Positions 2 through 24,151 of a stretch of 64,000 nucleotides of DNA are shown in pieces. Below the pieces are notes generated by a model. It was not told the DNA's origin, searched no databases, and was given only the letters and a program-made list of their open reading frames with translations. Position 1 is the stretch's first letter. Each line of letters starts with the position of its first letter. Both the position numbers and the translations under genes were made by a program. Source of the stretch: Marsupella aquatica (Eukaryota; Plantae; Marchantiophyta). The stretch covers positions 6,115 to 70,114 of the forward strand of contig CCZZQB010000055.1 of the NCBI GenBank assembly GCA_973895155.1, in the 5' to 3' direction.

Positions 2-2215
2 TCACCCCATAAGAAAAAAGATAAGAAGAAGAAACATTCCAAGAAGTCTAGAAGTGATAAGTCAAGCTCGGATAGTGGGAGTAGCAAGAGTGAGTCATCT
101 TCTAGTTCTGAAGAAGAAAAAACTAGGAAAAGGAAGGGCAGAAGGAGAGGGAAGACGAAAGTCAAGATGGAGGCTAAGCCACCAGATAACATCGTAGCCC
201 TTACCGAGCAACTTAAGGCTATCATTGCAGAGGTAAAACCAAAGAAGAAGGTAGTACAGGAGGATAGCTCTGTATGGTGTGCCTTATGTTATAAAACCGA
301 ACACCATAAAGATGCGTGTCCTAAGCTTAATACTAATCATGTTCGGCATGTGGCCGAGATCAGACCATGTCAGGGAGAAGTAGAGTACTTTTTGGGAGAT
401 GCCGCTGATAGTGTTTTCGGCATCAGTGAGACTGGAGCACGAGACCTATCCAACAGACCTGCATCTCTGTGGTCAGGATTAAGGAACAATCCAGGAGAGA
501 TGTATCCTCGGATTATTCAGAACCCGTCAGTACCTCCTAGGCCGAATGTGCAAAGATTTGCGGCGTGCTATAATTGTGGTCAACCTGGCCATTTTGCTAG
601 AGAATGCCCGAATGCACGCAAACAGGGTGATGGACAACCAGCTCAGCTATGTATGGGATGCCGACAGGAAGGTCATATGCTAGGGCAATGTCCTACTTGG
701 TTGGCAGGCCTGGCCGCAAATCATAAGCTTTTGCCGATCAAGATCTTACCGCCAGGTACTACCCCCGGAGGAGTTCAAATCAACCACATCGAACTAGGAT
801 GGCAAGAGGATGCCGAGGCAGAGTTCGTACCATTTGATGATGAGGCCGAAGCCCTATCAACCTTCTCAGAGGAGGATTTAGATCATGATTGCTACCGGGT
901 CTCTACTCGATCTACCAGAAGGAAGGAAAGGTGGGATGGGCTGGCCAAAAATAAAGGGAAGGTTACGGAGGAAAGGATCGACTCTTCGTCAACATCAACA
1001 GAAGGAGAAGGGAGGGCTCCGACAATACAGGTAAGCCATGAGCCCACCAGTGAAACCAATCCTTCACAAGATAGCGACTTCAATCGAGATCATCCTAAGT
1101 TGTTCTACCCCTCTGTTACGGCTAGTGTTAAGGAACAACTAAGAGAATTAGAAACCCTGGAGAATACCGAAGCCATTGCCAAGGATGTAAAACGAGCAAA
1201 AGCATTGTTTGCTTCGGAAGACCCAACAGCTGTGGAGACTAGCGTGGCAAAACTGGCCGAATCCAAGACGGAAACACCACCAGAAGAGAAGCCGATTGTT
1301 CCCTATGACCTGGCTAAAGATGTACTAGAATCTAGAGTCTCGGCAACAGTAGGTCAACTATTGAAAAATAGCCCGTACTTCCGGAAGCAATTAAGGAAGG
1401 CTATTCTCGGCAAGCCGAGATTACCCAAGGTAGCAACCAGATCCGACGTACTAATGATAGAAGAAGATCAAGGAGCCCCAGCATTACCATTAATGATTCA
1501 AGGAGAATTATTACTACGGGTACCCATCGATGGAGGATCAGGGGTATGTATTATGATTGATTCAACAGCAAAAGGGTGGGGTCTAACACCGGAGATGACT
1601 GGAAGAGTGTTGAACATGGCCAATGGATATCAGGTCATTCCGACGGGAGTGTTAACCGGCATCAAGACAGAGATAGGAGGTATCTTCTTTAGCATTAACT
1701 ATGTAGTAATGAAGCCGGTAAATCCTACGTCATTCCGGCTATTGATTGGTAGGCCATGGCTGTACCTAGCCGAGGTAATAGAAGATTGGGGTAAAAAGCA
1801 GTTCACTTTCGGGACCCCCTCTATCACGGTATCCTGGGACACTAAGGATGACCGTAGGAAAAGCATAAGGGAAGTAGATGGGTACGATAGTGGACTGGAG
1901 TCAGCCGATGAAGTACGTTGGTTAGAATGCCTCACTAACCTAACCGAAGAAGGTGTCTTTGGACCAGAGGTACCCCCCAGCGGATTATGGCAAGAACCAA
2001 TGGAAGGTGACTTGGAAGAAGAAGACGAAGAGGTCGAGGACTGCTTTACAATAGAATCCACCTTTTTAGCTGCAATTCCGGAGGAAGTTAAGGATGTAGA
2101 CCAATTGGATGAAACGGCTAAGTGGGGAGCAGTAGCAGGGACAATGGATTTTCTGCAGGCGTTGTGGCAGAGCCGACGGGGTCCACAACGCCATCGATCA
2201 TCGGCAAGGAATTAA
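2..2215 (+). CDS. gag: Gag-protease polyprotein (5' partial; frame open from base 2)
   Basis: K/S-rich linker; three CX2CX4HX4C knuckles (CALCYKTEHHKDAC, CYNCGQPGHFAREC, CMGCRQEGHMLGQC); aspartic protease motif PIDGGSGV and LLIGRPWL. Confidence 0.93.
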   Translation, partial: SPHKKKDKKKKHSKKSRSDKSSSDSGSSKSESSSSSEEEKTRKRKGRRRGKTKVKMEAKPPDNIVALTEQLKAIIAEVKPKKKVVQEDSSVWCALCYKTEHHKDACPKLNTNHVRHVAEIRPCQGEVEYFLGDAADSVFGISETGARDLSNRPASLWSGLRNNPGEMYPRIIQNPSVPPRPNVQRFAACYNCGQPGHFARECPNARKQGDGQPAQLCMGCRQEGHMLGQCPTWLAGLAANHKLLPIKILPPGTTPGGVQINHIELGWQEDAEAEFVPFDDEAEALSTFSEEDLDHDCYRVSTRSTRRKERWDGLAKNKGKVTEERIDSSSTSTEGEGRAPTIQVSHEPTSETNPSQDSDFNRDHPKLFYPSVTASVKEQLRELETLENTEAIAKDVKRAKALFASEDPTAVETSVAKLAESKTETPPEEKPIVPYDLAKDVLESRVSATVGQLLKNSPYFRKQLRKAILGKPRLPKVATRSDVLMIEEDQGAPALPLMIQGELLLRVPIDGGSGVCIMIDSTAKGWGLTPEMTGRVLNMANGYQVIPTGVLTGIKTEIGGIFFSINYVVMKPVNPTSFRLLIGRPWLYLAEVIEDWGKKQFTFGTPSITVSWDTKDDRRKSIREVDGYDSGLESADEVRWLECLTNLTEEGVFGPEVPPSGLWQEPMEGDLEEEDEEVEDCFTIESTFLAAIPEEVKDVDQLDETAKWGAVAGTMDFLQALWQSRRGPQRHRSSARN

Positions 2216-5200
2216 ATACCAAGGGATCGGCATACAAGCCGATTACGAGGGCAGAACAAATTGAGGCCCTATTAAAAGCCGAGAGAGCACAGCGGCCTAA
2301 CTCTCAGGAGCAAGAGGTGGATGAGATGGACAGACACGATCTAGAGCCAAGGCAGGAAGGGGAGCCGACCACTAATTCAAAACCGAATAGACCGGTAAGG
2401 GGACAATCTATGGACACCAAGGAAGGGACCGACTCGGCTAGTCCAGCCGAGATCCCAGTTTATGGAGGTATGAGATTAGAGAGACTGGAAGCCGAACTGG
2501 ACCCGAATTTGAAGAAGCAGATTAATATGATCCAAGCACGGCAATATCGGAAGCTCGACTTAGGAGAGGGAAGAGAACTGAACTTAGGGAGAAACCTAGC
2601 ACCTGAGCTCGAGAAAGAGATCAATGACTTATTGATTGAATTTCAGGATGTGTTTGCATGGAGTCACCAAGATCTAAAGGGAGTAGATCCAACACTAGGG
2701 GAACATCGAATTGATCTCATGTTAGGAGCCAAATCATTTCGACAACCAATTCGAAGGATGAACCCGAAGTATTCCCTGCTGGTCAAAACAGAAATCGACA
2801 AACTAGTGGAAGCTGGATTCATCACTCTAGTCCTGCATTCAGACTGGGTGTCTCCAATTGTGATAGTTCCCAAGAAAGCTGGACCCGATGGTAAACCCAA
2901 GATCCGGGTTTGTCAGGATTACAGGAAGCTGAATGAAGCAACATTAAAAGACCATTTTCCTTTACCGTTTACTGATATGGTACTAGACATGGTAGCCAGT
3001 CATGAACTATATTCATTCATGGATGGATACTCTGGTTATAACCAAATCAGGATTCGGCAGGAAGACCAAATCAAGACGGCCTTCATCACGGAATGGGGGA
3101 TCTATGTCTTCAATCGTATGCCGTTTGGACTCTGCAACGCACCAGCTATGTTCCAACGATTAATGGTGAACATTTTTCATGATTACTTGAGAAAGTTCAT
3201 GGAAATCTTCATTGATGACTTTGCAGTATTCGGGAAGGCATCGAAACATGCTAAATACCTCAGGAAAACCTTCATGAGATGTAGAGAGGTGGGTCTCAAG
3301 TTACACCCAGATAAATGTTTTTTTGCAGTAACCGAGGGGGTGCTACTAGGTCACAAGGTATCAAGGAAGGGCATTGAGATTGACAAAGGTAAGCTAGCAG
3401 TATGGCTAGATATCATGCAACCTAAGAACATAAAGGATGTAAGATCCTTCTTGGGATGCATTGGTTACTATCACCGGTTCATCAAGGATTTTGCCAAGCT
3501 AGCTTTACCATTAACCAATATGCTCAAGGCAGGAGCAGACTTCGAACCCACACCCGAACGAGTCACAGCGGTGGTAGAATTGAAGCAGATGTTAGTAGAG
3601 GCCCCAGTCATGATAGCACCGGACTGGAACAAAGATTTTCATGTTTTTGTAGATGTCTCGGGCTTCTGTATTGGCTCAGTACTAAGTCAGTTGGATGAGA
3701 AAGGAAGGGACCATCCCATATACTTCGCAAGCCGTCAGCTTGCCGATGCCGAACGGAACTACTCTACCACGGAAAGAGAAGCATTAGGAGTCATTTATTC
3801 TTGTAAAAAGTTTAGGCATTATTTACTAGGGTACAAGGTAATCTTTCATACTGATCATGAAAGTTTGAAGTACCTAGTCAATAAGCCGGACCTTACAGGC
3901 AGAGTAGCAAGATGGATTTTGCTATTACAGGAGTTTGACTATGAGCTGAGGATCAAGCCAGGAAAGTTACATGCCAATGCCGACTTCTTTTCAAGGATCA
4001 CAGGTAAACCTGCCACGGATTGCATCGATGATCGATTCCCCGACGAGGAGCTATTCGTTGTGGAAATAGCTGGTACATGGTACCCTGAGATTTTACAATT
4101 TCTCAGCACTTCCAGATTACAGCCAGGATTAAGCCGAGAGCAAGCCGCAGTCTTTGTGCGGAAGGTCAGACAGTATCAGTGCATTAAAGGCATACTGCAC
4201 AAGCATGGAATCAACGGCACGATTCAAAGGTGTTTGGAAAAGAGAGAGGTAAAACGAGTCCTACGGGCCATGCATGGAGAGGAGGCCGGAGGACATTTTG
4301 CCCCAGTAACCACATCTAAGAAGATATTAAATGCCGGTTACTGGTGGCCCACCTTGCACAAAGATGTCTATCAGTTTATCAAACAATGCGATCCTTGTCA
4401 ACGAGCGGGAGGACCAAGGGCGTCCACCAGGCATCCACTGCACCCTATTCTACCTCTGGCACCATTCGAGAAGTGGGGTATTGATTACATTGGACCTCTG
4501 AAACCACTGACCCACCCTCGACGGAACAAGTACATAATCCTGGCTACGGATTATGCAACTAAATGGGTAGAGGCCAGACCAACAACGAAGGATGATGCAA
4601 TTACTACGGCTAGATTCATGTATGAGCAGATCTTCACCAGGTATGGAGCACCCCTAGAATTAGTTAGTGATAGAGGAACCCATTTTTTGAATGATATAAT
4701 TAGTCGTTTAAATGAGCAGTATTTAGTTAAACATAGGCCTACTACTCCCTACCATCCAAAGGCAAACGGGTTGACAGAACGAGCAAACGGGATCATAGGA
4801 AAGATATTGAACAAGACAGTAGCTCAGAACAAACTCGATTGGGATGATAAATTGTTTGCTGCTGTTTTTGCTTACAATCTGGCCTATAAATCCACTACCG
4901 GTCATACACCCTTCTTCTTAACCTTTGGACAAGAAGCCCTGGTACCCATGCAACTTGAGATACCGACATTTCAAGTTACAATTGAGGAAAGAGCCTCAGC
5001 GGAGGAGAGCCTAAAGGAGCGAGAATATAGGTTAGAAGCTTTAGAGGAAGCGAGAATGATTTCAGCCGAGAGAGTAGAATATAGACAGAATATCATGAAG
5101 CAGCAGTATGATAAAAGGTTAAAAGTAGTTAGTATTCATACCGGTGATCTTGTGCTACTTTATGACAGTAGGTATAGTAGGTTTCCAGGAAAGCTTTACA

Positions 5201-5388
5201 CTCGCTGGTTAGGACCCTTTAGAGTAACCATGATGTTCCCCAATGGCTCCGTGCAATTGGCCAACATTACGGGAGAGGTATATCCAGTTCGCATCCATTA
5301 TGACCGCCTCAAGAAATACTATATGGACGAAGATGAAGTTGTTCGCGAGGACGCTTCACAATTAAGTGGGGAGCTATGTGATGCCTAG
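2122..5388 (+). CDS. pol: Pol (RT-RNase H-integrase), in the -1 frame relative to gag-PR
   Basis: RT motifs (DYRKLN, DGYSGYNQI, MPFGL, FIDD); RNase H (VDVSG, EREAL, TDH); integrase H..GHF..C..C, IDYIGP, SDRGTHF, ERAN. No internal stops. Confidence 0.97.
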   Translation: MGSSSRDNGFSAGVVAEPTGSTTPSIIGKELNTKGSAYKPITRAEQIEALLKAERAQRPNSQEQEVDEMDRHDLEPRQEGEPTTNSKPNRPVRGQSMDTKEGTDSASPAEIPVYGGMRLERLEAELDPNLKKQINMIQARQYRKLDLGEGRELNLGRNLAPELEKEINDLLIEFQDVFAWSHQDLKGVDPTLGEHRIDLMLGAKSFRQPIRRMNPKYSLLVKTEIDKLVEAGFITLVLHSDWVSPIVIVPKKAGPDGKPKIRVCQDYRKLNEATLKDHFPLPFTDMVLDMVASHELYSFMDGYSGYNQIRIRQEDQIKTAFITEWGIYVFNRMPFGLCNAPAMFQRLMVNIFHDYLRKFMEIFIDDFAVFGKASKHAKYLRKTFMRCREVGLKLHPDKCFFAVTEGVLLGHKVSRKGIEIDKGKLAVWLDIMQPKNIKDVRSFLGCIGYYHRFIKDFAKLALPLTNMLKAGADFEPTPERVTAVVELKQMLVEAPVMIAPDWNKDFHVFVDVSGFCIGSVLSQLDEKGRDHPIYFASRQLADAERNYSTTEREALGVIYSCKKFRHYLLGYKVIFHTDHESLKYLVNKPDLTGRVARWILLLQEFDYELRIKPGKLHANADFFSRITGKPATDCIDDRFPDEELFVVEIAGTWYPEILQFLSTSRLQPGLSREQAAVFVRKVRQYQCIKGILHKHGINGTIQRCLEKREVKRVLRAMHGEEAGGHFAPVTTSKKILNAGYWWPTLHKDVYQFIKQCDPCQRAGGPRASTRHPLHPILPLAPFEKWGIDYIGPLKPLTHPRRNKYIILATDYATKWVEARPTTKDDAITTARFMYEQIFTRYGAPLELVSDRGTHFLNDIISRLNEQYLVKHRPTTPYHPKANGLTERANGIIGKILNKTVAQNKLDWDDKLFAAVFAYNLAYKSTTGHTPFFLTFGQEALVPMQLEIPTFQVTIEERASAEESLKEREYRLEALEEARMISAERVEYRQNIMKQQYDKRLKVVSIHTGDLVLLYDSRYSRFPGKLYTRWLGPFRVTMMFPNGSVQLANITGEVYPVRIHYDRLKKYYMDEDEVVREDASQLSGELCDA
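2146..2205 (+). promoter_or_regulatory. Candidate -1 programmed ribosomal frameshift signal
   Basis: G_GAT_TTT at 2146-2152 in gag frame; 5-nt spacer; perfect 10-bp stem GGCGTTGTGG (2158-2167) / CCACAACGCC (2183-2192); loop GCCGA (2172-2176) can pair with TCGGC (2201-2205). Confidence 0.75.
5364..5376 (+). other. Polypurine tract
   Basis: AAGTGGGGAGCTA immediately before the LTR start TGTGATGCC. Confidence 0.8.
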
Positions 5389-8300
5389 ACAGGAATCACT
5401 CGACCGGTTAAGTGGGTAAAGCAGGAAGGCACCCTAGGAACACCTTAGTATAGTGACAAAACAAGGAAAATATAAACAATTAGGGGCAACCATGGAACCC
5501 GGGCAGAGGCCGGAGGTAAGGCTGAGGGTGAAAACCCGATTAGGGTTAGGGCGCGTTAAGCGTCGGCGGCTAGGAAGGATCAATGGGAAGAAGGACCGGC
5601 AGAGGAGAGGGGTAAGGAGCGCTTGCAGGAGATGGTGGCTCATTTGCGAGCACGAACTAGGCAGACGACTACGGGAGGCCAACTACTGTCAGCTGCTTAG
5701 GCAAGCACTCGGGGAGAGAGTAGATACCGACGATCGACCTAAGGAGGGTATGAGCAACGTCAATCAAGCGGCACATTTCTGGGGATGCCTGTTCGAACGG
5801 GCAACTGAGTACATCAAGACTTACGAGGACGAGGAGTCAGAAAGGGCAGCTCGAGAACGGCAGGAGCTCGCTCGATTGTGGGATCTGCACAAGACGGCTT
5901 TCTTAGGAGGCGAACTCATCAAGGACGAGTTCCTGTGGACGCCTACTTCCAATCAACTCGACGATCTTCTGTTTTGCAAAGACAGCATCGTCGGCATCTG
6001 AGAGGCCATCAAGAACTGCAACGACATACACTGGGAATTAAAGGGTAGCACGGAAAGGTGGACCCGGGCAACGGTGCTAGGAGAAACCTCCACGGCAGCA
6101 GAGATGAAGAGGAAGGGAGCCGTCAACGATGAAGCCACCCCGGCAAAAAGAACGAGGTCGGCGGCACCAAAGAAGCCAGCCGAGCAGCAGAGCAGGAGGC
6201 AGGGAGAAGCCGAAGAGGAGGAGGTCGATCCCATCAAGGCCATTCCAACCAGGGATGACACCTGGAAGGGCTGGGCGGCAACCCTACCGGTGGAGGTGCA
6301 ACTACATTTTGCATGGGAGGAGGATGCATGCTTTACGGCCATGCAGACCAAGAAGTACCAAGGCTTCATGGCCGGATCCGGCTTGGAGGCCTTTGTAAGA
6401 TTACCATGGCTGAAGCCGGAGGTACCGGAGTCAGACCTATTAGAATTCGTGGGGTCATGGGAACCCGAGACCAATTGCACGAGGATATATGGGAAGGATT
6501 TCTATCTTACTCCCAAGGTAATTGCCGAAGTGTTTGGCTTGCCGATGGGCAATAAGACCAAAGTTGATACCAGGAAGACCTTGCCTGACAAGGAGTTCCG
6601 GTCGTTCCCCGGGCCATCAACGAAGAATGGCTTCTTCCGGAACACCTGCACCAACCCGCACATAGGAGAGATGATCGACTTCTTGCGGGTGACCATGCAT
6701 TGTAACTTGCCGAGGGCAGAGATCGGCAAGGCACAGGTCTATCTGGCAGAAAGGCCAGACCCAAGCCGGGACTACAACGGGTACCTCCTCAACCAATTGA
6801 AGAAGATCTTAAAGGAGGAGCAGCAGGTAATCGGCATGGGGAGCGTGTCACGGCTTGGCTATCACATGCCGCTGTTGTGCCGGTATGCCAGAGGTCAGAC
6901 TTTTGCCCCGGTACTTCCCCTGCAGGTAAGGGCACCCGAGGAAGCTCCAACACCGAGGCCGTTGGCTGAGAAGCCTCCACCACCTGTTAGTCCTACGATC
7001 GAGCAAGTGTTTAGGCCCAGGAAGGAAGACTTGCCGATGCAGCAACCAGGCATGCAGAGTCTGCTGAAACTACTGGAGAAAGAAAAGAAATCGGCATCGG
7101 CAACAACAACGGCAACGGCAACAATGCAGGACACTACTACAGAGGTAGGCCTACACCGGCTCACAAGAGAAAACCCCTTTGCTGGAGACAAGGAGAGAAT
7201 CAGGCCGAAATCCAAGCCAGGTGTTCGAATGTACGTGGGAACCTCAAGCTCCGAATCTGAGGCAGAATTGCCTGAAGCTCCTACCGACGAAGAGGAGAGG
7301 GAGAAGCCGGACGTCCAAGAAGTAGAGGAGGCAGTGGAGGACTGCAGCCATGATAATTCCGGCTATGGGTCGGACCATGACATTCCAGGAGTAAGGACCT
7401 GTGGCCGGTTTGTCCCCACACTTCCAAGGGTAGTGCGAGGGGACCCCAACCAGCAGAGTAGCCCTGAGTCTCCCCCACCAGATGTTGCTCCCCCGAGCTT
7501 CGACGGCATAAAACAGACGGTGCAGGAATTTCAGGAGCGAATCAAGCAGGAGGAAGAGGCCGCCCTGGCTAAGGAAAAGGATTTACCAGGAGGACATTGG
7601 CCGGAGGACATCAGGCGGCTAGCCGAAAAAGGAAGCAAACCTCTAGCCACGATTGAAGAGATCCGCAGGACGGCGTGGGAGCAGAGGCCACGATGGGCGA
7701 TGCCGATCACTTCTACTTACTCCACCTACGCTAAGAATAGAGCCATGGAGTATGGTGAGATGTGTGGGGAACTTGCGCTCGGCATCTTTGGAGAGGAGTT
7801 GGAGGTAGGACCCTTTTTCCATAGGGAGCAGTTGGAGAAGCACCAATTAGAAGAAGCGGTGGCTTTAGAGAGAAGCAAGAAGGACGAGGTCATTTGGCGG
7901 CTTAGGAGGATGGGAGCCGAGATTGAAGATCTAAGGGCGGCCAAGAAAGCCCAAGATGAACTGCGGATTAAACGACATGAGCTGAACATCATGCAGGGGC
8001 AGTTGGACGCCGCGCAGGCTGATAATCAGAATATCAAGGATAAACTGACTCAGACGCAGGAAGAGTTGGCCGACACGATCAAAGAGAGGGAGAAGTGGAA
8101 GCAAGAGCTGAAGAATACAGAGGAGGCCCATATAACAGCCAACAGCCGGGCCATGGCGGAGACCCAAAGAAAGGAATGGGCGTTGAAAGGGGAGCTCGAG
8201 AAAATCCGCGGAGCCCTTGAGCAGAAGGAGGTCGAGTTAGGGAAATCCTATCAAGGGATTATGGCGCTGCAGCAGGAGCTTGCGTCCCTGACGGCCAGCT

Positions 8301-10027
8301 TCAAGGCCGACCTAAGGGAGAAGGACGAGATGCTCGAACAGACTTACGCCAAGATGAACCAGATGGAGTCTGTCATCATTGCAGAGCTCGACAAGGAGCT
8401 AAGAGCAACCCAGGAGGAGAGGGCTACCTTGAAGAAGGAATTGGAGGAAGCCCACAGGGAGCAGGAGGAGGCCAAAAACGAGCTGGAGGGGGCACGTAAG
8501 GACCTGGATGAAACCCAAGAGGAGTTGGAGGAAATCACGAGGAAGATGGAGAACCTACAGCGGCGGGCCGACAACCAAACAGAGCGGCTGAAGAAACAAG
8601 CCGCAGTATTTAAATGCTTAGCTGCAGCAGGTCCATCTCCCGTTGGGACAAACCAGTTACCAGGGGTGGTAATTGCTGAAGGACAAGCCGCGTCAACTGC
8701 ACCAGTGCCGGAAGTAAGTGGGAAGGGGAAGGGACCAGCTGCCGAGCCACCAACGAAGAAGAAGCGGAAACCTCCAGGGTCAAGGAGTAATACGACTTCA
8801 CAGGCCGTGGTGATCAAGGAGGTAGACCCAGCACCGACCCCAGACAGGGTCACGGCTAAGGATCCAACTACCCTAGGGGAAGGGGAGGCCGAAGCCGAGG
8901 GAGTGGCTGAAGCCGAAGCCGTGGGAGTGGCTGAGGCCGAAGCCGTGGGTATTGCCGAGGCCGGTGTCGAGGCTGAAGCCGAAGGTGGACCCAGTCAGGC
9001 CGATGGAGAGTTGACTCGGTCAAGGGCAGGTAATCTGTCAGTAGGCGGGCCAACGGCAGTGGCTGAGGAGGAAGTGTTGGGGGCATCCATTGAGGATCCA
9101 CCACCGGTGTCGTGACGGTGCAAGGGCACCGTTCCTTTTAGGGAAGGCGGACGTGGAGGGAGGAGGCGTGAGTGGGCAGGGCGGGCGCGGATCTCCACGT
9201 TTAGGATTAGGATCAGAACCAGGAGCGGCCCTGACACTTAGCTTAGTGGGATTGCGGTCCCACTGGTAGGAGCAACACTTGTGCTCCTGCCTTGCTGTAC
9301 ATAGGTAGATTCGGGCAAGTAGATTACTGTTAAGTAGATTAGGCTTACGATGCAAAGAATGGCGGATCCACTACCAGGATAAGTACCTGGGCAGCGGGGA
9401 GCTCAGGGCCTCTTCTTTAGCAAGTTTTTAGTTTGCACCAGCCGGGCTGGGATCAAGTAGTACGAGAAGCTCTCGGTTAGTCATACAGTGACCCTTGTGT
9501 ATATTCATGTTTCCTCATGCCTAAGAGCTGAATAGAGTTGGCCTCACGGCTTAGTTCGCAGAACTTGTGTATGAGATGTACTGTTTGTATGGCAAGTGCA
9601 TGGTATGATTCAGTCAGAATGAGTCATTTTGCTATTTGTGTGTCGCATTAACTTGTGTGAAGAGTGCCCACATCAACAGAAGGAAGGAAAGTAAGCAGGG
9701 GAGTGAGAGTTGGATGTGTCGAGCTGAGAGAGGTCTTAGCGGCTTAACCGAGCCTATTGGGGATCATTCCGGCGGCGGAATCCAAACATACCTAACAGGA
9801 AGACAGGGGAAGACAGGGGAAGGCCTATATTAGGTCGGCTACGTATCTCATGACCCGATGAAGGATCTGTCCAGTATATGTGTGTAAAATGTTAATAGTA
9901 GTAGTAGAAGGTTAGCAGCGTCCCATGCCGCTAAGCCGCGGAAACGGCCTCGCCAAGCACGAAACCTGCGGGAATCGGCTTGAGCTGGGGGGTTTCTTGG
10001 GTTTAGGGAGCCATGGGACGCACCACA
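5377..10027 (+). repeat. 3' LTR of element 1 (family A, copy A1, 4651 bp)
   Basis: Begins TGTGATGC and ends GCACCACA; the same boundaries recur at 37328-41908 (-) and 50337-54897 (+), and the 3' end recurs at 59386 (-); preceded by the PPT. Confidence 0.92.
5750..9115 (+). pseudogene. LTR-embedded ORF (about 1120 aa): conserved retroelement accessory domain plus acidic/Pro-rich linker and long coiled coil; one premature TGA at 5999-6001
   Basis: ORFs 5453-6001 and 6074-9115 are in one frame; the stop aligns with an Arg codon (CGG) in copy A3. Contains the LPW...EF...T..YG...LT...I..VFGLP motif. Confidence 0.85.
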
Positions 10028-10689
10028 AACCCGAGCCGAAGATTCTGAGCGTAATTGAAGCATGGTGTCGTCCAGCTTCTTGAGTTCGGCCTGCGCTCCG
10101 CTTAACTCCTGGGTTAGTCCGTCCCTCTGTTCGACAGTGTGGACTAAATCCTCGCGGCGGGTCGTTGCCTCCTCCTCGAGGTGCTCTACCAGCATCTGGA
10201 GACGCCCGATCTCATTCCCCTTCGCCATGAGTTCTTCTTCCAAGCGGCTGACGATCCGTGGTTGGTGCTCTAACATGAAGAAGGCTGGCTGAAAGTACGC
10301 CGAGACTTGTTGTCCGATGTATGTCGCCAACTCCCCAGACATAGTCTGGCTAAACTTCTGGACCAGGTCGTAGGCCATGGTCCCCGGGGCTACTTGGTAG
10401 TCCTCCATCCTCTCGGGTACCGGTGGTTCCTCGGCAGGGGCAATGAGCTCCTCCGTAGTCAGCGCTGGGGAGGGGAAGGTTTCTTCAGGTGGTGGAGGGA
10501 TTGGGGGTGGTTGTACTGCAGGTAGCGGAGGCTCAACGGAAGGAGGTGGTGGAATTTCCACAGGGGGCGGTTGCGGAGTATTAGTCGGGGCTTCCGGCTC
10601 GGGGTTTGTCCGAGGGACAGTAGTCCGCGTAGTCGGGGTTGCCTCCTCTGGGGCGGGGGTGACATTACCCGGGGCTGAGGTGGCCATAT
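10028..10689 (-). pseudogene. Distal part of the LTR-embedded ORF of family B1, cut by element 1 on the left and the DNA transposon on the right
   Basis: Pro-rich linker then coiled coil (MATSAPG...SARV) running into the A1 LTR end; joins in frame to the ORF beyond 24151 when the transposon is removed. Confidence 0.75.
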
Positions 10690-10715
10690 ATCAGCCTATT
10701 CATTAAAAGTGTATT
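10690..10715 (+). repeat. Left terminal inverted repeat ATCAGCCTATTCATTAAAAGTGTATT
   Basis: Exact reverse complement of 24122-24147. Confidence 0.95.
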
Positions 10716-10740
10716 TTCTTTTGTTCACAAATCAGTCCTG

Positions 10741-10830
10741 AAATGTACACTTTTATGTCCCCAAATGTACACTTTAAGAAGCCCAAATGTACACTTTTTG
10801 ATACCTAAATGTACACTTTATAGGCCAAAT
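10741..10830 (+). repeat. Left subterminal repeats (AAATGTACACTTT)
   Basis: About 4 copies; the same motif recurs at the right end. Confidence 0.85.
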
Positions 10831-11078
10831 CTTATTAGTATTATATTAATATATTATCTTATATTAATTATAATAGTATTATATTACTTATTAGTTCACA
10901 AAGAACCATGGGATAGAGATCATACTTGTAAAAACATTTACGCACAAAGAAGCCTAAGCAAGGACCATTGATTGATAATGTGTGAAATAATTATATACAA
11001 TTGTGTCCAAACTTACAATGAATATCCAGGGCTGGCACCCATTTTTACTATCTAATGGGCTTAACATGAGTCAGATCT

Positions 11079-12203
11079 CTAAACAAAGTGCTCCTTACAA
11101 TATTTATTTGAGCACGTGCCCTTGTCTCCTTTACTATCTACCCTAATGTCACGGTTGCAACTCCCTTTATCTTCAGGGAGATGAAATTTGGTGGTGTTGT
11201 TCCTAACTGCTATAATCTCCCGCAAAAAGTGTCTGGGATTTTCTCTATACAGACCTGAATATTCCCGTCCTACAAATGATCTAGCAAGTGAGGTGACAAG
11301 TGCATCGTCAAGTTCCACCTCAGGACGTAAGCTACATATACGGTGCTTCACAGCCCAAGGAATCTCATTGCTATTGAGGTCCAACACACTATGCCTATAC
11401 TGTGACTTCCAAATTTTTGCTGCACATCTCTTACTAAGTTGATCATAAGTAATCTCATTTTTTGCCTTGTCTCTCTTAATGTGCAATAGAGACCACTTTG
11501 GAGAGTTTAGGAGAAGATAACAACGAATGTCACTTGCATGTGACAGTTTCTCAAGACATGGCCAAAGAATTGTTAGAAGAAAATTGTCTCCACGATTGGC
11601 ATGCGTGTAGGGCACTGGAAATAGTCCGGTCATGTCTGGGTTGGCAAATGCCTTTAAGGGGGAGTCATCCACAAGGAGTGTGTTGGTTTCATCATATAGA
11701 TTTCCAAATGCACTCCATACCACCCGAAAATCCTTCAATAGCACATTTGCCTTTCCATTTGTAATGTCACGCCTTTGAATGCCTGTGTCAAAGGCTTCCA
11801 CCTGTGTGAATACAAACTTCAGTTTCAACCGCTCCTCAACAGTGAACATCATGTTCAACATTTTCACTGTCCGCGGCATCCCAGCACATGTCCAAATTGC
11901 AACGTCAAACCGGTCAAAAACCAACTTTAGAAACTCATGGAACCCTGGCCTCTGTGTATACATGCGACTAGTTCCATTTGATCTATCCCAATGCACTCCA
12001 TTTGGGGTCACAATGTTTCTGGATTTGCCCTTGCTTTGGAATTCAAGTGAATCCCAAAGTATTTTGTTAAGATCCAAAATCAGCAACTTCCGCTTGATGG
12101 GACAAGGTCTCGATTCTGCAAGTGCAACAAATACAACTCTTAGAAAGAAAACCAAATTTGAACTTTGGACTGATTTGAATCTCAGTCCAAAAATACAAGA
12201 CAA
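11079..12203 (-). CDS. FCP1/NIF-family HAD phosphatase-like protein (transposon cargo)
   Basis: KLLILDLNKIL (DxDxT-like motif, degenerate), RPGFHEFL, FDVAIWT, TLLVDDSPLKAFANP. The true 5' boundary is probably an acceptor TTGCAG at 12116. Confidence 0.8.
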   Translation of the reverse strand: MSCIFGLRFKSVQSSNLVFFLRVVFVALAESRPCPIKRKLLILDLNKILWDSLEFQSKGKSRNIVTPNGVHWDRSNGTSRMYTQRPGFHEFLKLVFDRFDVAIWTCAGMPRTVKMLNMMFTVEERLKLKFVFTQVEAFDTGIQRRDITNGKANVLLKDFRVVWSAFGNLYDETNTLLVDDSPLKAFANPDMTGLFPVPYTHANRGDNFLLTILWPCLEKLSHASDIRCYLLLNSPKWSLLHIKRDKAKNEITYDQLSKRCAAKIWKSQYRHSVLDLNSNEIPWAVKHRICSLRPEVELDDALVTSLARSFVGREYSGLYRENPRHFLREIIAVRNNTTKFHLPEDKGSCNRDIRVDSKGDKGTCSNKYCKEHFV

Positions 12204-12352
12204 TGACTAACAACAAAGAAAACCTATATACCATTTTTAGAAGCCCCAAAGAGCGTAGGTGGATATCGAGGCTCTAATTGCTGACCGCATTCTGTGAGAC
12301 CGAGAAGTATTTTAGATTGGTATGAAAAAATGGAAAGTCAGACGGTTTGATC

Positions 12353-14728
12353 TCAGTCTGAAAAAAGAGATCCGTATTCATCAATAATGTCAACACCCAG
12401 CTCCTCTTGGATTTCAAAATTGACATCTGAAGTACTTTGTTCTACCCAATAAGGTGACGTCCAAACAGGAGTTATCAATCCCAATTCTCCTCTCTTATAC
12501 TCCTTCCTGTTAAGAATCGATGGAGCAGCATCCAATGAAACTTCTTGGCCTCTATTTGGCCCACTTTTCCACACATAACATCGTGCATCACGTTCAAGTG
12601 ACCTCCATCCGGTTGATCCAACTCTATTCCCTTTTTTCTTTGAGAGAGGAAGGACAACTGGACTTCCCGAGTGTGAACGAACAAAAACCAATTTGTCATC
12701 AGAAGCTGAAAAGAGTGTGTCAGGACAAATTGAAGCACCTGCCTGGTTGTCAACAGTCGCTGATGCACGGGCTTCTGGGGTCATGGGAATCTCACGTACT
12801 TCGACAGCCGTCCCGGGAATCAAATTTTGGGTGTCAGCTTCATTCGAATTGACCTGTCTGTCTCCACCGTCCGCGACCAAATTGGTTGACGAACAATTTT
12901 CAAATGTATCAATGTCAATCGGATCATCAATTCCGTCCATTTCTCGTTGCACCACATTTGGATTGAGACCATCCTTGTCCAAGTTGTCATCAACCTCAAC
13001 TTCATAGGGTTCCAAAGGGACGTCATCTGCACGTGATGAAGGGCGTGGTGCAAGACCAACGTTATCATCAACATCGTAGGGTTCTATGCTTTCACTTTGA
13101 CCTACACGGTCATCCAAATTCTTTGCATACGCCACCTCTGATGCCCCATCATCTTTGACTGACTTAGCGCCCACTTCTTTGGAATTATCAGCTGATTCAT
13201 GTTCGGTAGAAACATCCGCAATAGTGGGTTTCCAATGCCTAGAACTCCCACCACGAGGATCCCAATTTTCCTTGATTGAGGGGACCCTCTCGCAAAGGAA
13301 TGAAGCATACGCTTCCACAAAGTGTCTCTCATCTTGAGAGTCACAATAAACAAAGCATTCGCGTTGCACCAAGAATGCTGTCTTCATCACTTGACCACCC
13401 GAGAAAAAATCAAGAATCAAGTCTCCAGCTTCTGACAAGGATTCAATAATCCTCTGTATCATCCGCGTGGGTTTGGCATGTGGATTCACCCAACCACCAC
13501 GAGCACCAACTATCTCAAATCGAGGGGCCATGTGCAAAACCTTGGTCGCCTCTTCTGGGGTCAGCATCATTTTTAGATCTTCGGGTTTTGACACGTCGTC
13601 TATGTCAACCTTTGCCTTCCCAGTGTCAATCTTGGTGACCTCAAAATCAGTATCTTTTGAACCAAAAAAGAATTTTGGCTTTGGGTGATTGGGTTTGAAA
13701 ACATCATTCCAATTCACATTTTCATCTCGAGAAATTCCTGCAAATATAACTTCTTCAATTCCGCCTCCCCAACACGAATCAAGCGGGTGCGGTTGATCCT
13801 CTCGAGAATAACTCCCATACTCAATGTGAATGGTGAGAGATTTCTCTTGTCCCAATTTTCGAAGTGAGCTTAGGACATTCATTGCAAGAGGCCCCGGATG
13901 AACAGTTATGGCTACAACGATTGTAAGATTTTGTGGTAGCTCCACAATGTATTGCAGAAAGACCAAAACTTCTGCTTCCGTCCACAGCTTCTGGTGATCT
14001 CGACTGAAGTCAACAATGGCAAGTGAGCACGTTGGAGATGATTCTTCTATTGCTGGTGGATCAACTGTTTTCATTAGATTGTCACTAAAGAACGTGACCC
14101 ACGGTTGGCTCCGAGAATGTGTCCCTCCGCCAAACTTCTGGCAATAAATATCATCAAGGCGCATCACCAGAGCTATTGGCAAGATTGCACTCTCCCTGGT
14201 ATGATTTGGCTTCAACAGATTTGACAAAAAAACTTCACCAGCCGCTCTTCTGCATCTACTGAATTCTGCGTCAACACTCAACAATGGCAGAACCTCTACA
14301 ACTTTCTTCCAATCGGTATCCGAAGGGAAATTCCTTGGATCCTTGCCGAAGTAGTACTCCTCAATGAGAGACTTGAGCTTCCTCACTTTTTTCACATCCT
14401 TCGCAAGCTCCTCTATTGAGGGTATGTCAGATTTATTTGTGGCATCTTTCTTCAGCAATGCCTTTCCTGACTTCACTTGTGTCAGGATTTTTGTGATGTC
14501 TTTCTGTGAGATCAACTCACCATCAAAGGGACGAAACATGGCAACGGTAATTGCTTTTTCGGACTTGTTATTTCCTTCCATCCCAGCTCCATCAGGAAGT
14601 TTCCCATGCAACCACATCTCACAGACTAACCGCCACAACTCAAAAAGATCGTTGTCCACAAAAAGTAGCCAGTATACATTTCGCAAGTCCTTCCTGCCCA
14701 TAGTCATTCTTGCCAGAGCCAACCAATC
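12353..14728 (-). CDS. Exon 2 of ParB-like/amino-methyltransferase-like gene: beta-class N4/N6 MTase-like fold plus acidic tail
   Basis: HAKPTRMIQRIIESLSEAGDLILDFFSGG resembles HPTQKP...GDLVLDPFxGSG; upstream SLAIVDFSR sits at the expected DPPY position; acceptor TTGTAG ends at 14729, phase 0. Confidence 0.7.
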   Translation of the reverse strand, partial: DWLALARMTMGRKDLRNVYWLLFVDNDLFELWRLVCEMWLHGKLPDGAGMEGNNKSEKAITVAMFRPFDGELISQKDITKILTQVKSGKALLKKDATNKSDIPSIEELAKDVKKVRKLKSLIEEYYFGKDPRNFPSDTDWKKVVEVLPLLSVDAEFSRCRRAAGEVFLSNLLKPNHTRESAILPIALVMRLDDIYCQKFGGGTHSRSQPWVTFFSDNLMKTVDPPAIEESSPTCSLAIVDFSRDHQKLWTEAEVLVFLQYIVELPQNLTIVVAITVHPGPLAMNVLSSLRKLGQEKSLTIHIEYGSYSREDQPHPLDSCWGGGIEEVIFAGISRDENVNWNDVFKPNHPKPKFFFGSKDTDFEVTKIDTGKAKVDIDDVSKPEDLKMMLTPEEATKVLHMAPRFEIVGARGGWVNPHAKPTRMIQRIIESLSEAGDLILDFFSGGQVMKTAFLVQRECFVYCDSQDERHFVEAYASFLCERVPSIKENWDPRGGSSRHWKPTIADVSTEHESADNSKEVGAKSVKDDGASEVAYAKNLDDRVGQSESIEPYDVDDNVGLAPRPSSRADDVPLEPYEVEVDDNLDKDGLNPNVVQREMDGIDDPIDIDTFENCSSTNLVADGGDRQVNSNEADTQNLIPGTAVEVREIPMTPEARASATVDNQAGASICPDTLFSASDDKLVFVRSHSGSPVVLPLSKKKGNRVGSTGWRSLERDARCYVWKSGPNRGQEVSLDAAPSILNRKEYKRGELGLITPVWTSPYWVEQSTSDVNFEIQEELGVDIIDEYGSLFSD

Positions 14729-14967
14729 CTACAATCCAAAAGGAAAGCTAGTCAGTTATCCCCAACGCAAGGGTTGGAAAAAAAGGATTCTAATGTGTGA
14801 TAATAGTATTGGATTCGGATGGTCTCAATCAAAAAGAAAACTCGTACTAAACATTCCAAAAGTTCCAATACTCTTTGACAAATCGTGTCGGACTGAGACC
14901 ATCCGAATCCAAAATAGAATTACTCTCTATGGTAGAGAAATGCATACAAAGTAATCACATTTCTTAC
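14729..14967 (-). other. Predicted 239-bp GT-AG intron
   Basis: Donor CAG|GTAAGA and acceptor TTGTAG|GAT are both phase 0, giving NQKFQ-DWLALARM in frame. Confidence 0.8.
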
Positions 14968-16575
14968 CTGAAATTTTTGGTTGTCTTGAGCATTTGTTTT
15001 GTTGTCGCCATGTTTTGGTTTGTCTGGATTTCCATATTCAACAAACTGCCGCCTCGCATGGACAACTGTATCTTTAAAGCAAGATTGAAACACCATCGTG
15101 CTATTGATGGCGTTTGATCTCATGGAGTGCTCAACAAGAATTGAAGACGGTGTGCGATCAGACAATATTCTGGATTTCCTGAATTCTAACTTCTTGGCCA
15201 ACTGGGTGAGCTTGGCATCCTTCGTTGCCCAATCACGAATCCATCTCGCAGCTCTCGCAGAGTGCTGACCACTAACGGCTAGAAATTGGACCTCGCCCTT
15301 TTTCACTCCGGCCAAAAAATCCTTCCGGTCCGACTCCGTATTCTCAAAGTGGAGTACCTTTCTTTGCTCGACGTTAAAAGGAATCAAATCAGCGACATGT
15401 GGCTCATGCCCAGGTGTTTTGATCATGGAATCAGCAATGTCTTGCACATGATCAAAATTCATCATCCGATAGCATAGTCTCGCTGGTGCGGCAAAAATAC
15501 TTTCAACTGGGATCAGAAAAATTTCGTTTATCCCAAAAGTATAGTACTGCTCCATTTGTTGAAGAACTTCATTCCCTTCTAAGACGTCTTTCTCCTCTGG
15601 AGCATGTGGCCTATCACTCTCATCTTCAGCATGTAATGAAAAATCTATAGGAGTTGAATTCACAACTCCGGTGTCGGTTTTTTGTTTCTTCTTCTCCCTC
15701 GACTTCTTCTCGGCTGGAAGCTTCTTCTTCTCGGCTGGAAGCTTCTTCTTCTCGGCTGGAGCCGTGATCTTCTTCTCAACTGAAGTAGGTTTCTCAACCA
15801 GAAGCTTCTTCTCCCTCTGCTTTCGCTTCCCTGCCGCTCTATCCATGGTTGTTGTTGCAGTAGTTTGTGCTGTCTCCGTCGTAGTTGCTGGAGTTCCTTT
15901 GGCTGGCGTAGACTCAATTATTTTCTGTGGTTGTGTACTTTTCCTCAACTTCACCAAAGACTCTACCCATAGATTTGCTTTTTCCAGGTCAAGCGTGTGT
16001 GCAAAGGCTAGTGCCTTGGCGATCCAAACATTTGAGTCTGGTGACACCAGACCTGCTTTCTCAAGCAAATTGTTAAGAGTCCATGTGGATGGAAGAGAGA
16101 ACTTTGATGGGTTGTTTACAATGTTGAGTTTCAAATAAAGAAACCCATAAAAAATGTCCAAAGGAAGCATTCCCTTCAGTCCTCCAATAATCTTCTCCTT
16201 TGTGTAGGATTTTGGAAAGAATCCCATCGACAACACACTTAATTCCCCACTTGCATACCATTCCACATTGAACTCGGCCGAGAAAGCCTTTGTGGGGAGC
16301 TGCAACTTTGCCCACCTCATCGTGTCCGACACCTCTACAATGATAGAATTCATTCCTCTTCCTATCATTCCCACAGAGACCACGGGTCCGATGACCAATG
16401 TTTGGTTGTTGCCTGTCCTGATCTTGACACATAACACTGGATCCTGAATGTTAAATGAATTCAGGCGGAAGTTAACTCGCGAGAACTCAAGTCCCCACCG
16501 AAATCCTGGATCGCGGTCCTCCAAAATGAGCCCATCGTCGCAGTCTGCCTCTGAAATGGCGAGAGTTGTATTCAC
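14968..16575 (-). CDS. Exon 1 of cargo gene: unknown N-terminal domain, Lys-rich linker and ParB/Srx-like domain
   Basis: IPVESI...RMMNFDHVQDIADSM...FLAVSGQHSARAA resembles the ParB/Srx core ending in (D/S)G(Q/x)H(R/S); 21-bp repeats encode AEKKKLP. Confidence 0.65.
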
Positions 16576-16673
16576 CAGATCACTCTCTGCATTGGAGAGT
16601 GAAAATTCATATTAGACTTCAAATCCATGAAATTTGTTTTAAGAAATCACTGTCAAAGTGAGATTGAAGGCTC

Positions 16674-17340
16674 TTGGATTCGGACCATCCGAATCCAATA
16701 CAAGAAGCCCACTTGGATTCAGATGGTCCGAATCCAAACAACCCTCTTAGATTCGGACCATCTGAATCCAATCAAGCCACTTGGATTTGGACCATCCAAA
16801 TCCAAACAACCCACTTGGATTCGGATGGTCCGAATCCAAACAACCCTCTTGGATTCAGACCATCCGAATCCAATCAAGCCACTTGGATTCGGACCATCCA
16901 AATCCAAACAACCCACTTGGATTCGGATGGTCCGAATCCAAACAACCCTCTTGGATTTGGATGGTCCGAATTTAAACAACCCTCTTAGATTCAGACCATC
17001 CGAATCCAAACAACCGACTTGGATTCGGATGGTCCGAATCCAAACAACGCTCTTGGATTTGGACCATCCAAATCCAAACAACCCACTTGGATTCGGATGG
17101 TCCGAGGTTGTTTGGATTCGGATGGTCCGAATCCAAACAACGCTCTTGGATTTGGACCATCCAAATCCAAACAACCCACTTGGATTCGGATGGTCCGAAT
17201 CCAAACAACCCTCTTGGATTTGGATGGTCCGAATTTAAACAACCCTCTTAGATTCAGACCATCCGAATCCAAACAACCCACTTGGATTCGGATGGTCCGA
17301 ATCCAAACAACGCTCTTGGATTCGGACCATCCGAATCCAA
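16674..17340. repeat. Left palindrome array: about 34-bp units (TTGGATTCGGA-CCA/TGG-TCCGAATCCAA plus about 9 bp), 102-bp higher-order period
   Basis: Read directly; frame translations repeat every 34 aa. Confidence 0.92.
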
Positions 17341-17794
17341 CAACTTAAGATGCATGAATAAACCTCCGGGAACTTACTTTGGACTTGAGATTGAAATTCT
17401 TGGGAATCCCTAAGCGCTAGGGCCACAAGATCACCGACAGAGGAGAGATCCAAGTCATCAGATTCTTCGGCGAGTAGGACGATGACGGTTTTCTTGGAAA
17501 CTTCCATTTTTAGGAGTGACACGTGGCAGGATATACTGAGGACACGTCAAGATGGGCAAGATCTAGGGCGTTGCAGCAGATTAGGGCAAGAAGGCAATTA
17601 GGGCAAGGGCAAGGGATATCAGCGGCAGCCAGCCAAGAGCGAGAGCGAGGAGCGAGAATGAGGAGCTAGAGCGAGAGCGAGGAGCGAGAGGGAGGAGCGA
17701 GAGTGAGGAGCGACAGAGAGAAAACAACAATGAGGTCTGTGGAAGACCTCATCCTCCCTTTACCCCCTCCTGAAAGGCTTGTTTGCGTACGGAT

Positions 17795-17852
17795 GATCGC
17801 TGCACGGATCATCTCTGTACGGATCATCTCTGTACGGATCATCTCTGTACGG
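17795..17852 (+). repeat. 15-bp tandem repeat CGGATCATCTCTGTA x3
   Basis: Direct reading. Confidence 0.85.
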
Positions 17853-18502
17853 ATAGAGACCAAGAAGGGATCTGGTCCTATCAGTTTGGGTGGGACGCTA
17901 GCTGTATTGTCTGACACAATGGATTGAAAAAGGATTGGATGATTGTTCTAACCGCGATACTCGGTGTTGCCTCAACCTTATCGGATCGCACATTCAGGGC
18001 CGAACATACCAACCCACGAGTATAAGAGGTACTCTACGGACATCATTGTTGTTTTAGTTTCATATCTTCACTTGGGCATCCAGGTCTGCGCAACTCCTCC
18101 TCAGCTCTTCTCTCTGATGGAGTTTAGACTTGAAGTGGCTTTGATAGCTTTCTTAGTCAGATTGATATGAACTTATTCATCAATTTAGAGGTAGCAGAGC
18201 CAACCTTGGAGACATACTGGAAAAACAAGACTGCTGAGGTGAGTTATGGTCTTAGTCGCTTTGCTTATTTTGAGTTCTTAGGGAAGAGAGACGAACCCTT
18301 TCACTTTGTTCTGCATTCTAGTGACTTCCCAATTATTATTTCACGAATTACCCAATGTTCCGAAAAACCCGGAATGTCTAAATTTGATTAGGAAGAGATC
18401 TCAATCTCAATATATCCATCTCAACATAATCTTCATTGTGGAGTTAGACCATTTGAATCCAGACTTGATGTGTGGATTATAATGGTCCTAATCCTAGATT
18501 GT

Positions 18503-19633: not shown

Positions 19634-19747
19634 CGTGATAGTTGAGCCAATGTTTGGATTCTCGGAATGGCAATCAAATGACCGTATGGATAATTGTGAG
19701 TCTCTTCAAATTCTTGTCATTCGGATTTGTGATGGTTTTTCTGAAAA

Positions 19748-23563: not shown

Positions 23564-23784
23564 TTGTCACTAGCTAAGATATAATTAGATAGTTACTAGT
23601 TTTTATGTAAGAGTTATATATATTGTGAGACCATGCCATTGAGTGTTTAGTTACTTAGTAGACTATCTACTCATTTTCTAAACTTTTGATTATTATGAAT
23701 ATGAATGTTTATTTTTTCTGCATAATTAAAAATATTTTTTATTAATTTCTTTATTTTAAATGATTACAATAAAAGTTTTCAGGA

Positions 23785-24110: not shown

Positions 24111-24121
24111 AATCAAATAAT

Positions 24122-24147
24122 AATACACTTTTAATGAATAGGCTGAT
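24122..24147 (-). repeat. Right terminal inverted repeat
   Basis: AATACACTTTTAATGAATAGGCTGAT. Confidence 0.95.
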
Positions 24148-24151
24148 ATAT

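Follow-up and report, generated by a model that had tools for sequence, protein, structure and literature searches.

What would a retrotransposon gain from a large protein-coding gene placed inside its long terminal repeats (LTRs), so that every full element carries it twice and every solo LTR once? This question is raised by element 1, a Ty3/gypsy retrotransposon at the left end of the 64-kb stretch of contig CCZZQB010000055.1 from Marsupella aquatica analysed here (the window, to which all positions refer). Its 3' LTR, A1 (5377-10027, forward strand; 4,651 bp, with ends TGTGATGC...GCACCACA), lies directly 3' of the purine tract that follows pol, and encloses a sense open reading frame (ORF) of 1,121 codons (5750-9115, forward strand) with a single stop at codon 84. 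The pattern of substitution between copies of this ORF and the predicted fold of a domain within its product lead us to propose, with a probability of about one half, that this accessory gene encodes a nuclear, DNA-binding, coiled-coil factor that counters the silencing of its own family; each end-repeat would then likely carry an anti-silencing gene of its own.

That 5377-10027 is an LTR, as the preliminary description of this DNA had held, is supported by its TG...CA ends, its adjacency to the polypurine tract (PPT), the further copies in the window, the 5-bp duplications around the solo copies A3 (CCGAC) and E (AAGTA), and a 3' boundary visible in public sequence data. Self-BLAST of the window returned three full copies of LTR A (A1, A2 and A3) and one 3' fragment (A4). 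A3 (50337-54897, forward strand; 83% identity to A1) is a solo LTR with CCGAC on each side, a perfect 5-bp target site duplication (TSD), and holds the whole ORF (50715-54032; 1,105 codons, with one stop at codon 359); this copy had been described correctly, as had the retention of the gene after solo-LTR formation. A2 (37328-41908, reverse strand; 82% identity to A1) is a decayed solo copy within gag of element 2 and shows no clean 5-bp duplication, and A4 (59386-60431, reverse strand; 99.1% identity to A1) has been cut by LTR D. Contigs from public runs depart at 10027/10028 into unrelated, mixed flanks (agreement 0.36-0.55 in five of the seven runs compared; none there in runs X6 and X7), which fixes the 3' boundary of A1 at 10027, and contigs in three of four runs enter at 10028 from other DNA, as expected of a target site without the insertion. 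Depth of the public contigs, which here is not a copy number, was greater over the LTR than over pol. The 15 public runs listed included no RNA run carrying sequence, and a search of Rfam gave no match. A possible primer binding site (PBS) following LTR A at 10027 resembled the corresponding tract of element 2 in run X2 only (15 of 21 letters by eye, agreement 0.37), not in X1, X3, X4 or X5, and was not counted.

Element 2, a sister element on the reverse strand, reads LTR B (46366-42407; 3,960 bp), a PBS-like tract 13 bp further on (about 42393-42376), gag with A2 inside it, pol with the solo LTR E inside it, a PPT almost identical to that of element 1 (5360-5376, forward strand), and, from 28292, a second LTR B that LTR C interrupts at 26017. 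The two LTRs (42407-46366 and 26017-28292, both reverse strand) are 93.9% identical over 2,276 bp, both hold an ORF homologous to that of LTR A (broken, 45892-43299 in the 5' copy), and for family B the sequence of the 3' LTR is thus also seen as a 5' LTR ahead of a PBS-like tract and gag. The differences between them comprise 128 transitions and 11 transversions, an excess expected of methylated DNA. The claim that the gene is present twice per element stands for element 2; the 5' LTR of element 1 falls outside the window, and family A is known here from its 3' LTR and from solo and fragment copies. The further idea that the gene is spread by solo LTRs has the mechanism wrong: solo LTRs arise by recombination after a full element has inserted, so they keep the gene and do not spread it.

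To judge by the sequences, an ORF within the LTR is common to several neighbouring families, a feature that the preliminary description had overlooked together with the predicted VANC/PMD-like fold of the domain. Single-family profiles of the A, B and C domains find each other with E-values of 4e-16 to 1e-19. The domain of LTR E, a 3,611-bp solo LTR in the pol end of element 2 (28365-31975, reverse strand; TSD AAGTA) whose broken ORF also has a coiled coil, is a more distant homologue that joins with a deeper profile (independent E-value 6e-9; reversed control empty). LTR C (5' part at 24152-26016, reverse strand) carries a homologous ORF that continues at 10685-10028, past a DNA transposon; C and D are taken to be LTRs, as judged from a single end in each case (for C, its TG start and its layout). 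Counting A to E, LTR sequence of this ORF-bearing kind makes up 48% of the window, with A nested in C in B, E and A nested in element 2, and D nested in A.

The ORF of A1 is poor in stops when set against 2,000 shuffles, in which the best frame still held at least 26, and the stops of A1 and A3 are each private to their own copy. Between A1 and A3 the nonsynonymous rate (dN) is 0.106 and the synonymous rate (dS) is 0.433, a dN/dS of 0.246 (bootstrap 0.20-0.31; 1,092 codons), and comparison with A2 gives 0.284 for A1 and 0.278 for A3, all well under 1. The other sense frames of the A1/A3 pair give 0.93 and 1.57, the non-coding controls 0.92 (5') and 0.61-0.80 (3'), and the antisense frame in register 0.30, as a shadow of the sense frame. 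By part, the A1/A3 ratio is 0.215 in the N-terminus, 0.085 in the conserved domain, 0.273 in the linker, 0.18 in the coiled coil and 0.61 in the tail. All five indels within the ORF are multiples of three, against four of ten outside it, and in a 27-codon stretch singled out previously seven codons differ, six of them synonymously. If the ORF is extended in frame on its 5' side, to 5492, the added part shows no sign of selection (0.92). The ORF is under purifying selection along its whole length, and the earlier account of an open ancestral frame and a selected accessory gene is borne out; as A1 and A3 have common LTR ends, selection would have acted with the gene already inside the LTR. No use was made of the ratio for the B LTR pair (0.48; 0.40 in another frame), which records decay that followed insertion.

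The product combines a conserved globular domain at residues 186-377 (6305-6880, forward strand), a low-complexity linker, a coiled-coil region at residues 698-959 or thereabouts (7841-8626, forward strand; from a heptad scan) and a low-complexity tail with a KKKRK run; its basic runs are predicted nuclear-import signals. No transmembrane segment was found (maximum 19-residue Kyte-Doolittle mean 0.98 in A1, 1.03 in A3 and 1.22 in B), and therefore the protein is not env-like. Pfam returned only weak coiled-coil noise on the ORF. Word-seeded searches for homologues with the A domain (1,045 candidates) and with a six-row alignment (7,978 candidates) came back empty, which reflects their limited sensitivity, because an exhaustive profile search later found 74 homologue clusters at E<=0.001 (32 at 1e-10). 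Thirty homologues were looked up, 11 of them from Calypogeia fissa (for example CAM6082161.1, CAM6090539.1 and CAM6101870.1), one from Riccia sorocarpa (KAL3679715.1) and 18 without an organism name, and several of them (six inspected) share the plan of N-terminal region, domain, low-complexity linker and coiled coil. None of the 74 matches PF03078, PF04195 or PF10536, and PF09331 (DUF1985) is matched neither by these nor by any of the seven window domains. Scans of viral contigs gave no match, and the single metagenome match (L001; E 3e-5, 40 residues), on the opposite strand of a bacterial glycosidase-like ORF, is attributed to chance.

AlphaFold2 with 79 aligned rows produced a confident model of residues 186-377 (pLDDT 92.2, pTM 0.88), with conserved basic positions at model residues 90, 123, 128 and 137; a model from five rows only (pLDDT 40.6) was discarded, the fold searches made with it being meaningless. 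When the confident model was compared by VIA with 48,161 solved chains, six reached Z 2 and one reached Z 5. This chain is DNA-bound VANC21 (9lnk_A; Z 7.5, root-mean-square deviation 3.9, 186 of 192 residues aligned), the next best having Z 2.4, and a repeat comparison with VANC21 gave Z 7.1. Foldseek likewise placed VANC21 first (9lnj_A; TM 0.50, against at most 0.23 in the other rows shown), so that it is the sole clear match of the predicted model in two aligners. The Atlas leads are Transposase_32 (0.89) and ATHILA (0.88) for A1, and DUF1985 (0.86) and the plant mobile domain (PMD; 0.85) for a Calypogeia homologue. Sequence searches of the PDB with three profiles gave best E-values of 0.58-1.6 or nothing, and the best BFVD match was A0A890CAY5, an entry with no name (E 0.01, TM 0.37); the fold lists contained neither PMD nor Athila ORF structures, an absence that is uninformative. 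A kinship of fold with VANC/PMD proteins is, on these models, quite probable, and the sequence leads make a distant kinship with the Transposase_32, ATHILA ORF-1 and PMD families likely, with none of the three at its curated cut-off.

Promoter-like and terminator-like signals bracket the ORF. The sole TATA[AT]A match in LTR A1 (5471-5476, forward strand) is a candidate promoter of the ORF; A1, A2 and A3 keep one match per copy, at +95 to +97 and 5' of the ORF, and LTR B has its only match at +369; the 106 bp from there to its start codon contain no other ATG. The 3' non-coding part (9116-10027, forward strand), of which the last 750 bp are 92-95% identical between A1 and A3, contains a TGTA cluster about 440-460 bp from the LTR end that may represent a poly(A) region, and both A and B have TGTA clusters and a T-rich block 360-530 bp from the end. 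No second canonical TATA was found in the last 0.9 kb of LTR A. The differences private to A1 become fewer after about 9350, which may reflect recombination at R or just stronger constraint and was not used as evidence. Twenty-two bp past the ORF stop, each of the four A copies carries a PPT-like tract with TG after it (9137-9155, forward strand), possibly the relic of an older LTR start. This tract favours a position in U3, reached when the PPT shifted and an extra ORF that had been internal was captured; U3 is the placement that the preliminary description had inferred and that we slightly prefer; the sole TATA upstream of the ORF also fits a location inside a very long R, which we regard as possible with less confidence, and a location in U5 appears improbable. 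As a separate observation, spotted post hoc, the frequency of TTAG is 8-15 per kb on the sense strand of the non-coding parts of LTRs A-E against 1-4 per kb in the ORFs, gag-pol and the DNA transposon, a contrast that is partly due to avoidance of stop codons in ORFs, and it is biased between strands (for example 19:4 in A1).

We propose that the gene started as an extra ORF of the Athila/Tat type between pol and the PPT, and that a new PPT directly after pol then came into use, by which the ORF would have been taken into the LTR. With a TATA in its first 370 bp and a poly(A) region in its last 500 bp, each LTR, solo or not, could be a complete expression unit. The protein, predicted to oligomerise through its coiled coil and to enter the nucleus by means of its basic runs, would bind LTR DNA of its own family and act in trans; with action in trans from every LTR, gene dose would scale with the number of LTRs and not with that of full elements. 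This scheme has a precedent in VANC, which recognises motifs in the transposon that encodes it and strips off methylation (PMC5735166), and VANC and MAIN/PMD proteins are described as structurally alike (PMC13547354; bioRxiv 2024.09.27.615353). A bolder version, which we find conceivable but doubtful, is that a liverwort Ty3 lineage made its LTR into a self-contained anti-silencing cassette of promoter, VANC-fold gene and terminator, with the solo LTRs still supplying the factor in trans.

A number of points weigh against this proposal. The Foldseek match to VANC21 has an E-value of 0.86 and a probability of 0.35, the Z of 7.5 sits in the range that the tool calls common (typical best Z 7-8), and identity between the domain and VANC21 is 6-12%. 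Every Atlas family score is below 0.9, none of the seven window domains matches any Pfam family, and PF20167 (Transposase_32) is touched, within the domain, by three of the 74 homologues at 13.7-17 bits against a cut-off of 45. These moderate fold scores carry weight because of the gap to the next match, the full-length cover and the agreement with the weak sequence leads; a shared fold by itself is nevertheless no evidence of function, and the modelled domain of A1 is charge-neutral (24 K+R, 23 D+E). VANC targets are arrays of motifs built up in the non-coding DNA of the element, but in the non-coding parts of six of six LTRs no exact 6-8-mer was enriched over shuffles, a scan that degenerate or single motifs would escape. 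The four A copies, each broken or partial, include no intact ORF; ATGs intervene between the TATA and the ORF start (three in A1, two in A3); and the neutral baseline of the dN/dS method is below 1, since the non-coding controls give 0.6-0.9. A scan for the PPT-like pattern gave ten matches in the window (four at the site past the ORF stop in A, one at a true PPT) against 3.3 expected in shuffles, with a pattern that was set after the site had been seen and that missed the true PPT of element 2, and the B ORF is followed by no such counterpart. Finally, host PMD proteins with a VANC-like fold were first described as silencing factors (PMC5418596), so that the effect may run in either direction, silencing or anti-silencing.

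The same fold might instead assist replication, binding LTR cDNA or chromatin while the coiled coil escorts or tethers the integration complex and silencing marks stay unchanged. A fold of DNA-binding type and the basic runs fit such a helper equally well, as does the lack of VANC-like motif arrays, and a role in nuclear import or transposition has been proposed for the extra ORFs of Retand and Grande with Transposase_28 and SMC-like domains (PMC7264820). The nesting of ORF-bearing LTRs could likewise reflect targeting, but it is expected anyway where such LTRs fill nearly half of the window; a helper has no need of a place in the LTR, and such proteins of this fold as have been characterised all act on chromatin silencing. 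We consider this role unlikely, while the least unlikely of the alternatives. A protein that binds LTRs could also dampen its own family, a self-limiting repressor whose dose grows with every LTR including solos, and a gene doubled in LTRs and kept in solos would be well placed to count copies. The PMD proteins MAIN and MAIL1 were described as needed for silencing of transposable elements (TEs; PMC5418596). However, MAIN/MAIL proteins were later tied to opposing Polycomb, their effect on TEs being put down to lower MORC1 (bioRxiv 2024.09.27.615353), and strong selection across several abundant families fits a transposition benefit better, which makes copy-number control distinctly less credible.

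With a position in U5 or in a very long R, the ORF would open the genomic RNA as its first cistron and could yield, via early polyadenylation or splicing, a regulatory or structural partner of Gag whose likeness to VANC is incidental. The single TATA ahead of the ORF in A and B, with no second one near the 3' end of A, and an acceptor-like CT-rich AG just 5' of gag in element 2 (by eye) would suit such an RNA. On the other hand, transcripts with a 4-kb R would have to run past the first poly(A) site, many promoters lack a TATA and the relic PPT-like tract points to a 3' origin; a position in R alone would, moreover, leave an anti-silencing role possible. This arrangement seems to us quite improbable. 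It is harder still to credit that the ORF is a mere passenger, or that the unit is no LTR but an internal region or separate insertion copied with the element, its expression lost. The broken state of every copy in the window and the position of element 1's 5' LTR beyond view agree with this, but it is already contradicted by the perfect duplications at A3 and E, by the PPT next to the LTR in two elements, by the presence of the ORF in the 5' and the 3' LTR of element 2 and by a dN/dS of 0.25 between copies with common LTR ends.

Element 1 enters the window within gag-pro (2-2215, forward strand; an open frame with zf-CCHC at E 1e-8, its 5' end beyond the window), and pol (2122-5388, forward strand; from Pfam and translation) encodes reverse transcriptase, RNase H and integrase (RT-RH-INT). 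These two frames overlap at 2122-2215; in element 2, protease and RT share one frame, a difference that may stem from a true frameshift or from decay. Pol of element 1 reads across the PPT and stops 12 bp inside the LTR, neither element has a 3' spacer between pol and PPT, and in both the end of pol (5302-5388; 28364-28260, reverse strand) lies inside the LTR with nearly the same peptide; as pol reads through it in both elements, the PPT region is coding. Pfam detected no chromodomain and no second RNase H in pol of element 1, whose native RH has intact D-E-D-D motifs. To judge by its RT-RH-INT order and lack of a chromodomain, element 1 is a non-chromovirus Ty3/gypsy element.

Sequences of Calypogeia fissa, of Riccia sorocarpa and of Marchantia are among the best 120 of 5,108 pol matches. 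An RT-RH tree built from 53 rows (element 1, 22 name-labelled matches and the first 30 others, from 97 with more than 85% cover; no labelled clade references) joins element 1 to two proteins of Calypogeia with support 1.0 (69-70% identity) and separates it from the angiosperm rows; the nearest of its named relatives are liverwort sequences. We file it only as an Athila- or Tat-Z-like liverwort lineage. Athila is recognised by its place in RT/RH/INT phylogenies, a 5-bp TSD, a PBS for tRNA-Asp/Asn and a sense extra ORF on the 3' side. Of these, the 5-bp TSD agrees, and element 1 falls outside the angiosperm group in this unlabelled tree; the PBS-like tract of element 2 possibly resembles the end of a tRNA-Asn. 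The additional RNase H of Tat elements (Ogre, Retand, TatI-III) was not found in element 1, but the liverwort Tat clades Z1 and Z2 are themselves described without it (PMC10508981, PMC13468544) and so could still accommodate the element. Phygy and Selgy have a 4-bp TSD and are short elements in which the polyprotein fills the internal part and no extra ORF is recorded (PMC6317226, file 5); the 5-bp duplications and the element of about 15 kb found here do not match these, and only the filled internal region agrees.

Several other features of the window deserve mention. LTR C encloses a 13.5-kb DNA transposon with terminal inverted repeats (10686-24151), with ORFs for a DUF7869 protein (19745-23563, forward strand) and a NIF-type phosphatase (11079-12206, reverse strand), a 791-codon ORF (12353-14728, reverse strand) with a borderline match to N6/N4 DNA methylases (26.4 bits against a cut-off of 26.7), and blocks of short repeats in both orientations (16667-19645). 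ORF fragments at 55036-56038 (reverse strand) resemble, by eye, the C-terminal part of the methylase-like ORF, which points to the decayed remains of another DNA transposon related to this one; an amino-methylase carried by a transposon would, in a liverwort-like genome, be worth separate attention. Fragments of a B-related LTR lie at 46367-48688 (forward strand), 72% identical to B over the 3' 1.2 kb, with a dN/dS of 0.24 against B in the coiled-coil part (127 codons). The LTR-like unit D (60432-64000, reverse strand), within A4, has an open 623-codon sense ORF with a coiled coil; profile searches, including the deeper profile, found no homology to the A/B/C/E domain, and this ORF could be another LTR-internal gene, independent of the first. 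Around 63825-64000 there are short tandem repeats.

Hosts delete retrotransposons chiefly through solo-LTR formation, which here leaves an entire gene in place. If the LTR does act as an anti-silencing cassette, it would be the first VANC-type anti-silencing system of a retrotransposon, would provide a function for the Athila/Tat extra ORFs, unexplained for so long, and would mean that retrotransposons had the VANC/PMD fold before seed plants arose. The function of plant Ty3 extra ORFs has been open for more than two decades, and whether the extra ORFs of LTR elements modulate epigenetic state is described as still to be investigated (PMC12844716); a confident model that matches DNA-bound VANC21 offers a direct test. 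A VANC/PMD-like domain in a liverwort-type retrotransposon would also bear on whether the fold originated in a retrotransposon or a host gene, a question left open in PMC5418596, with host capture favoured for VANC in PMC13547354. In practical terms, such ORFs are annotated as host genes, for example as 'unnamed protein product' in Calypogeia fissa.

In the titles and abstract openings of the literature found, there is no description of a plant Ty3 gene inside an LTR or of a VANC-type factor encoded by a retrotransposon; the search on LTR ORFs returned mostly mouse mammary tumour virus (MMTV). The sag gene of MMTV lies in U3, and its membrane-bound product is several times shorter than that of the LTR A ORF. 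Like the gene studied here, sag is a whole protein gene within the LTR, doubled at both ends (e.g. PMC2118998); it differs in encoding a superantigen of a vertebrate retrovirus, unrelated in sequence and fold, whereas here several Ty3 families have the layout.

Among plant elements, the closest parallels are the extra ORFs of the Ogre/Tat/Athila (OTA) group, for which ATHILA ORF-1 (PF03078), Transposase_28 (PF04195), the plant mobile domain (PF10536) and SMC-like coiled coils are described (Neumann 2019, PMC6317226; Vicient and Casacuberta 2020, PMC7264820). The LTR ORF shares with these a non-chromovirus Ty3 host, a large accessory frame and the combination of globular domain and coiled coil, and the elements share a 5-bp target duplication, very long LTRs and, as in Athila, a sense orientation of the ORF. 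In contrast, OTA ORFs are internal in the cited accounts, between pol and the 3' LTR or upstream of gag, whereas those described here lie within the LTR, with two in each element and one in each solo; pol continues directly into the PPT, and the ORFs stay below every Pfam cut-off. The long LTRs of Ogre have been described as non-coding (PMC6431247). Extra ORFs were classed by Neumann solely by their side of the polyprotein, 5' or 3', and Tekay has them on both (33% and 18% forward; PMC6317226), so LTR-internal ORFs may sit unremarked in those tables.

For the protein itself, the nearest counterpart is VANC21, encoded by VANDAL21, a MuDR DNA transposon of Arabidopsis (DUF1985; PDB 9lnj/9lnk). 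Both are transposon-encoded accessory proteins, alike in predicted fold over 186 of 192 residues (Z 7.5), and a coiled coil for oligomerisation is predicted for VANC as well (PMC13547354). Unlike VANC21, the present protein is known from sequence and model, is encoded in a retrotransposon LTR of a liverwort, while VANCs are called dicot-specific, and has 6-12% identity to VANC21 and no target-motif arrays that we could find. MAIN, MAIL1, MAIL2 and the Gypsy-encoded PMD-A proteins join the same fold group through VANC, PMD-A being Ty3-encoded, and an anti-silencing role has been proposed for TE-encoded PMDs; these differ in that the LTR ORF has no PF10536 match, and in that the PMDs were surveyed in angiosperms, with none reported inside an LTR in the sections cited (PMC5418596; bioRxiv 2024.09.27.615353). 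Taken together, these comparisons indicate that the LTR ORF is a variant of the known plant Ty3 accessory ORFs, unusual in its position and with a testable link to VANC-type anti-silencing.

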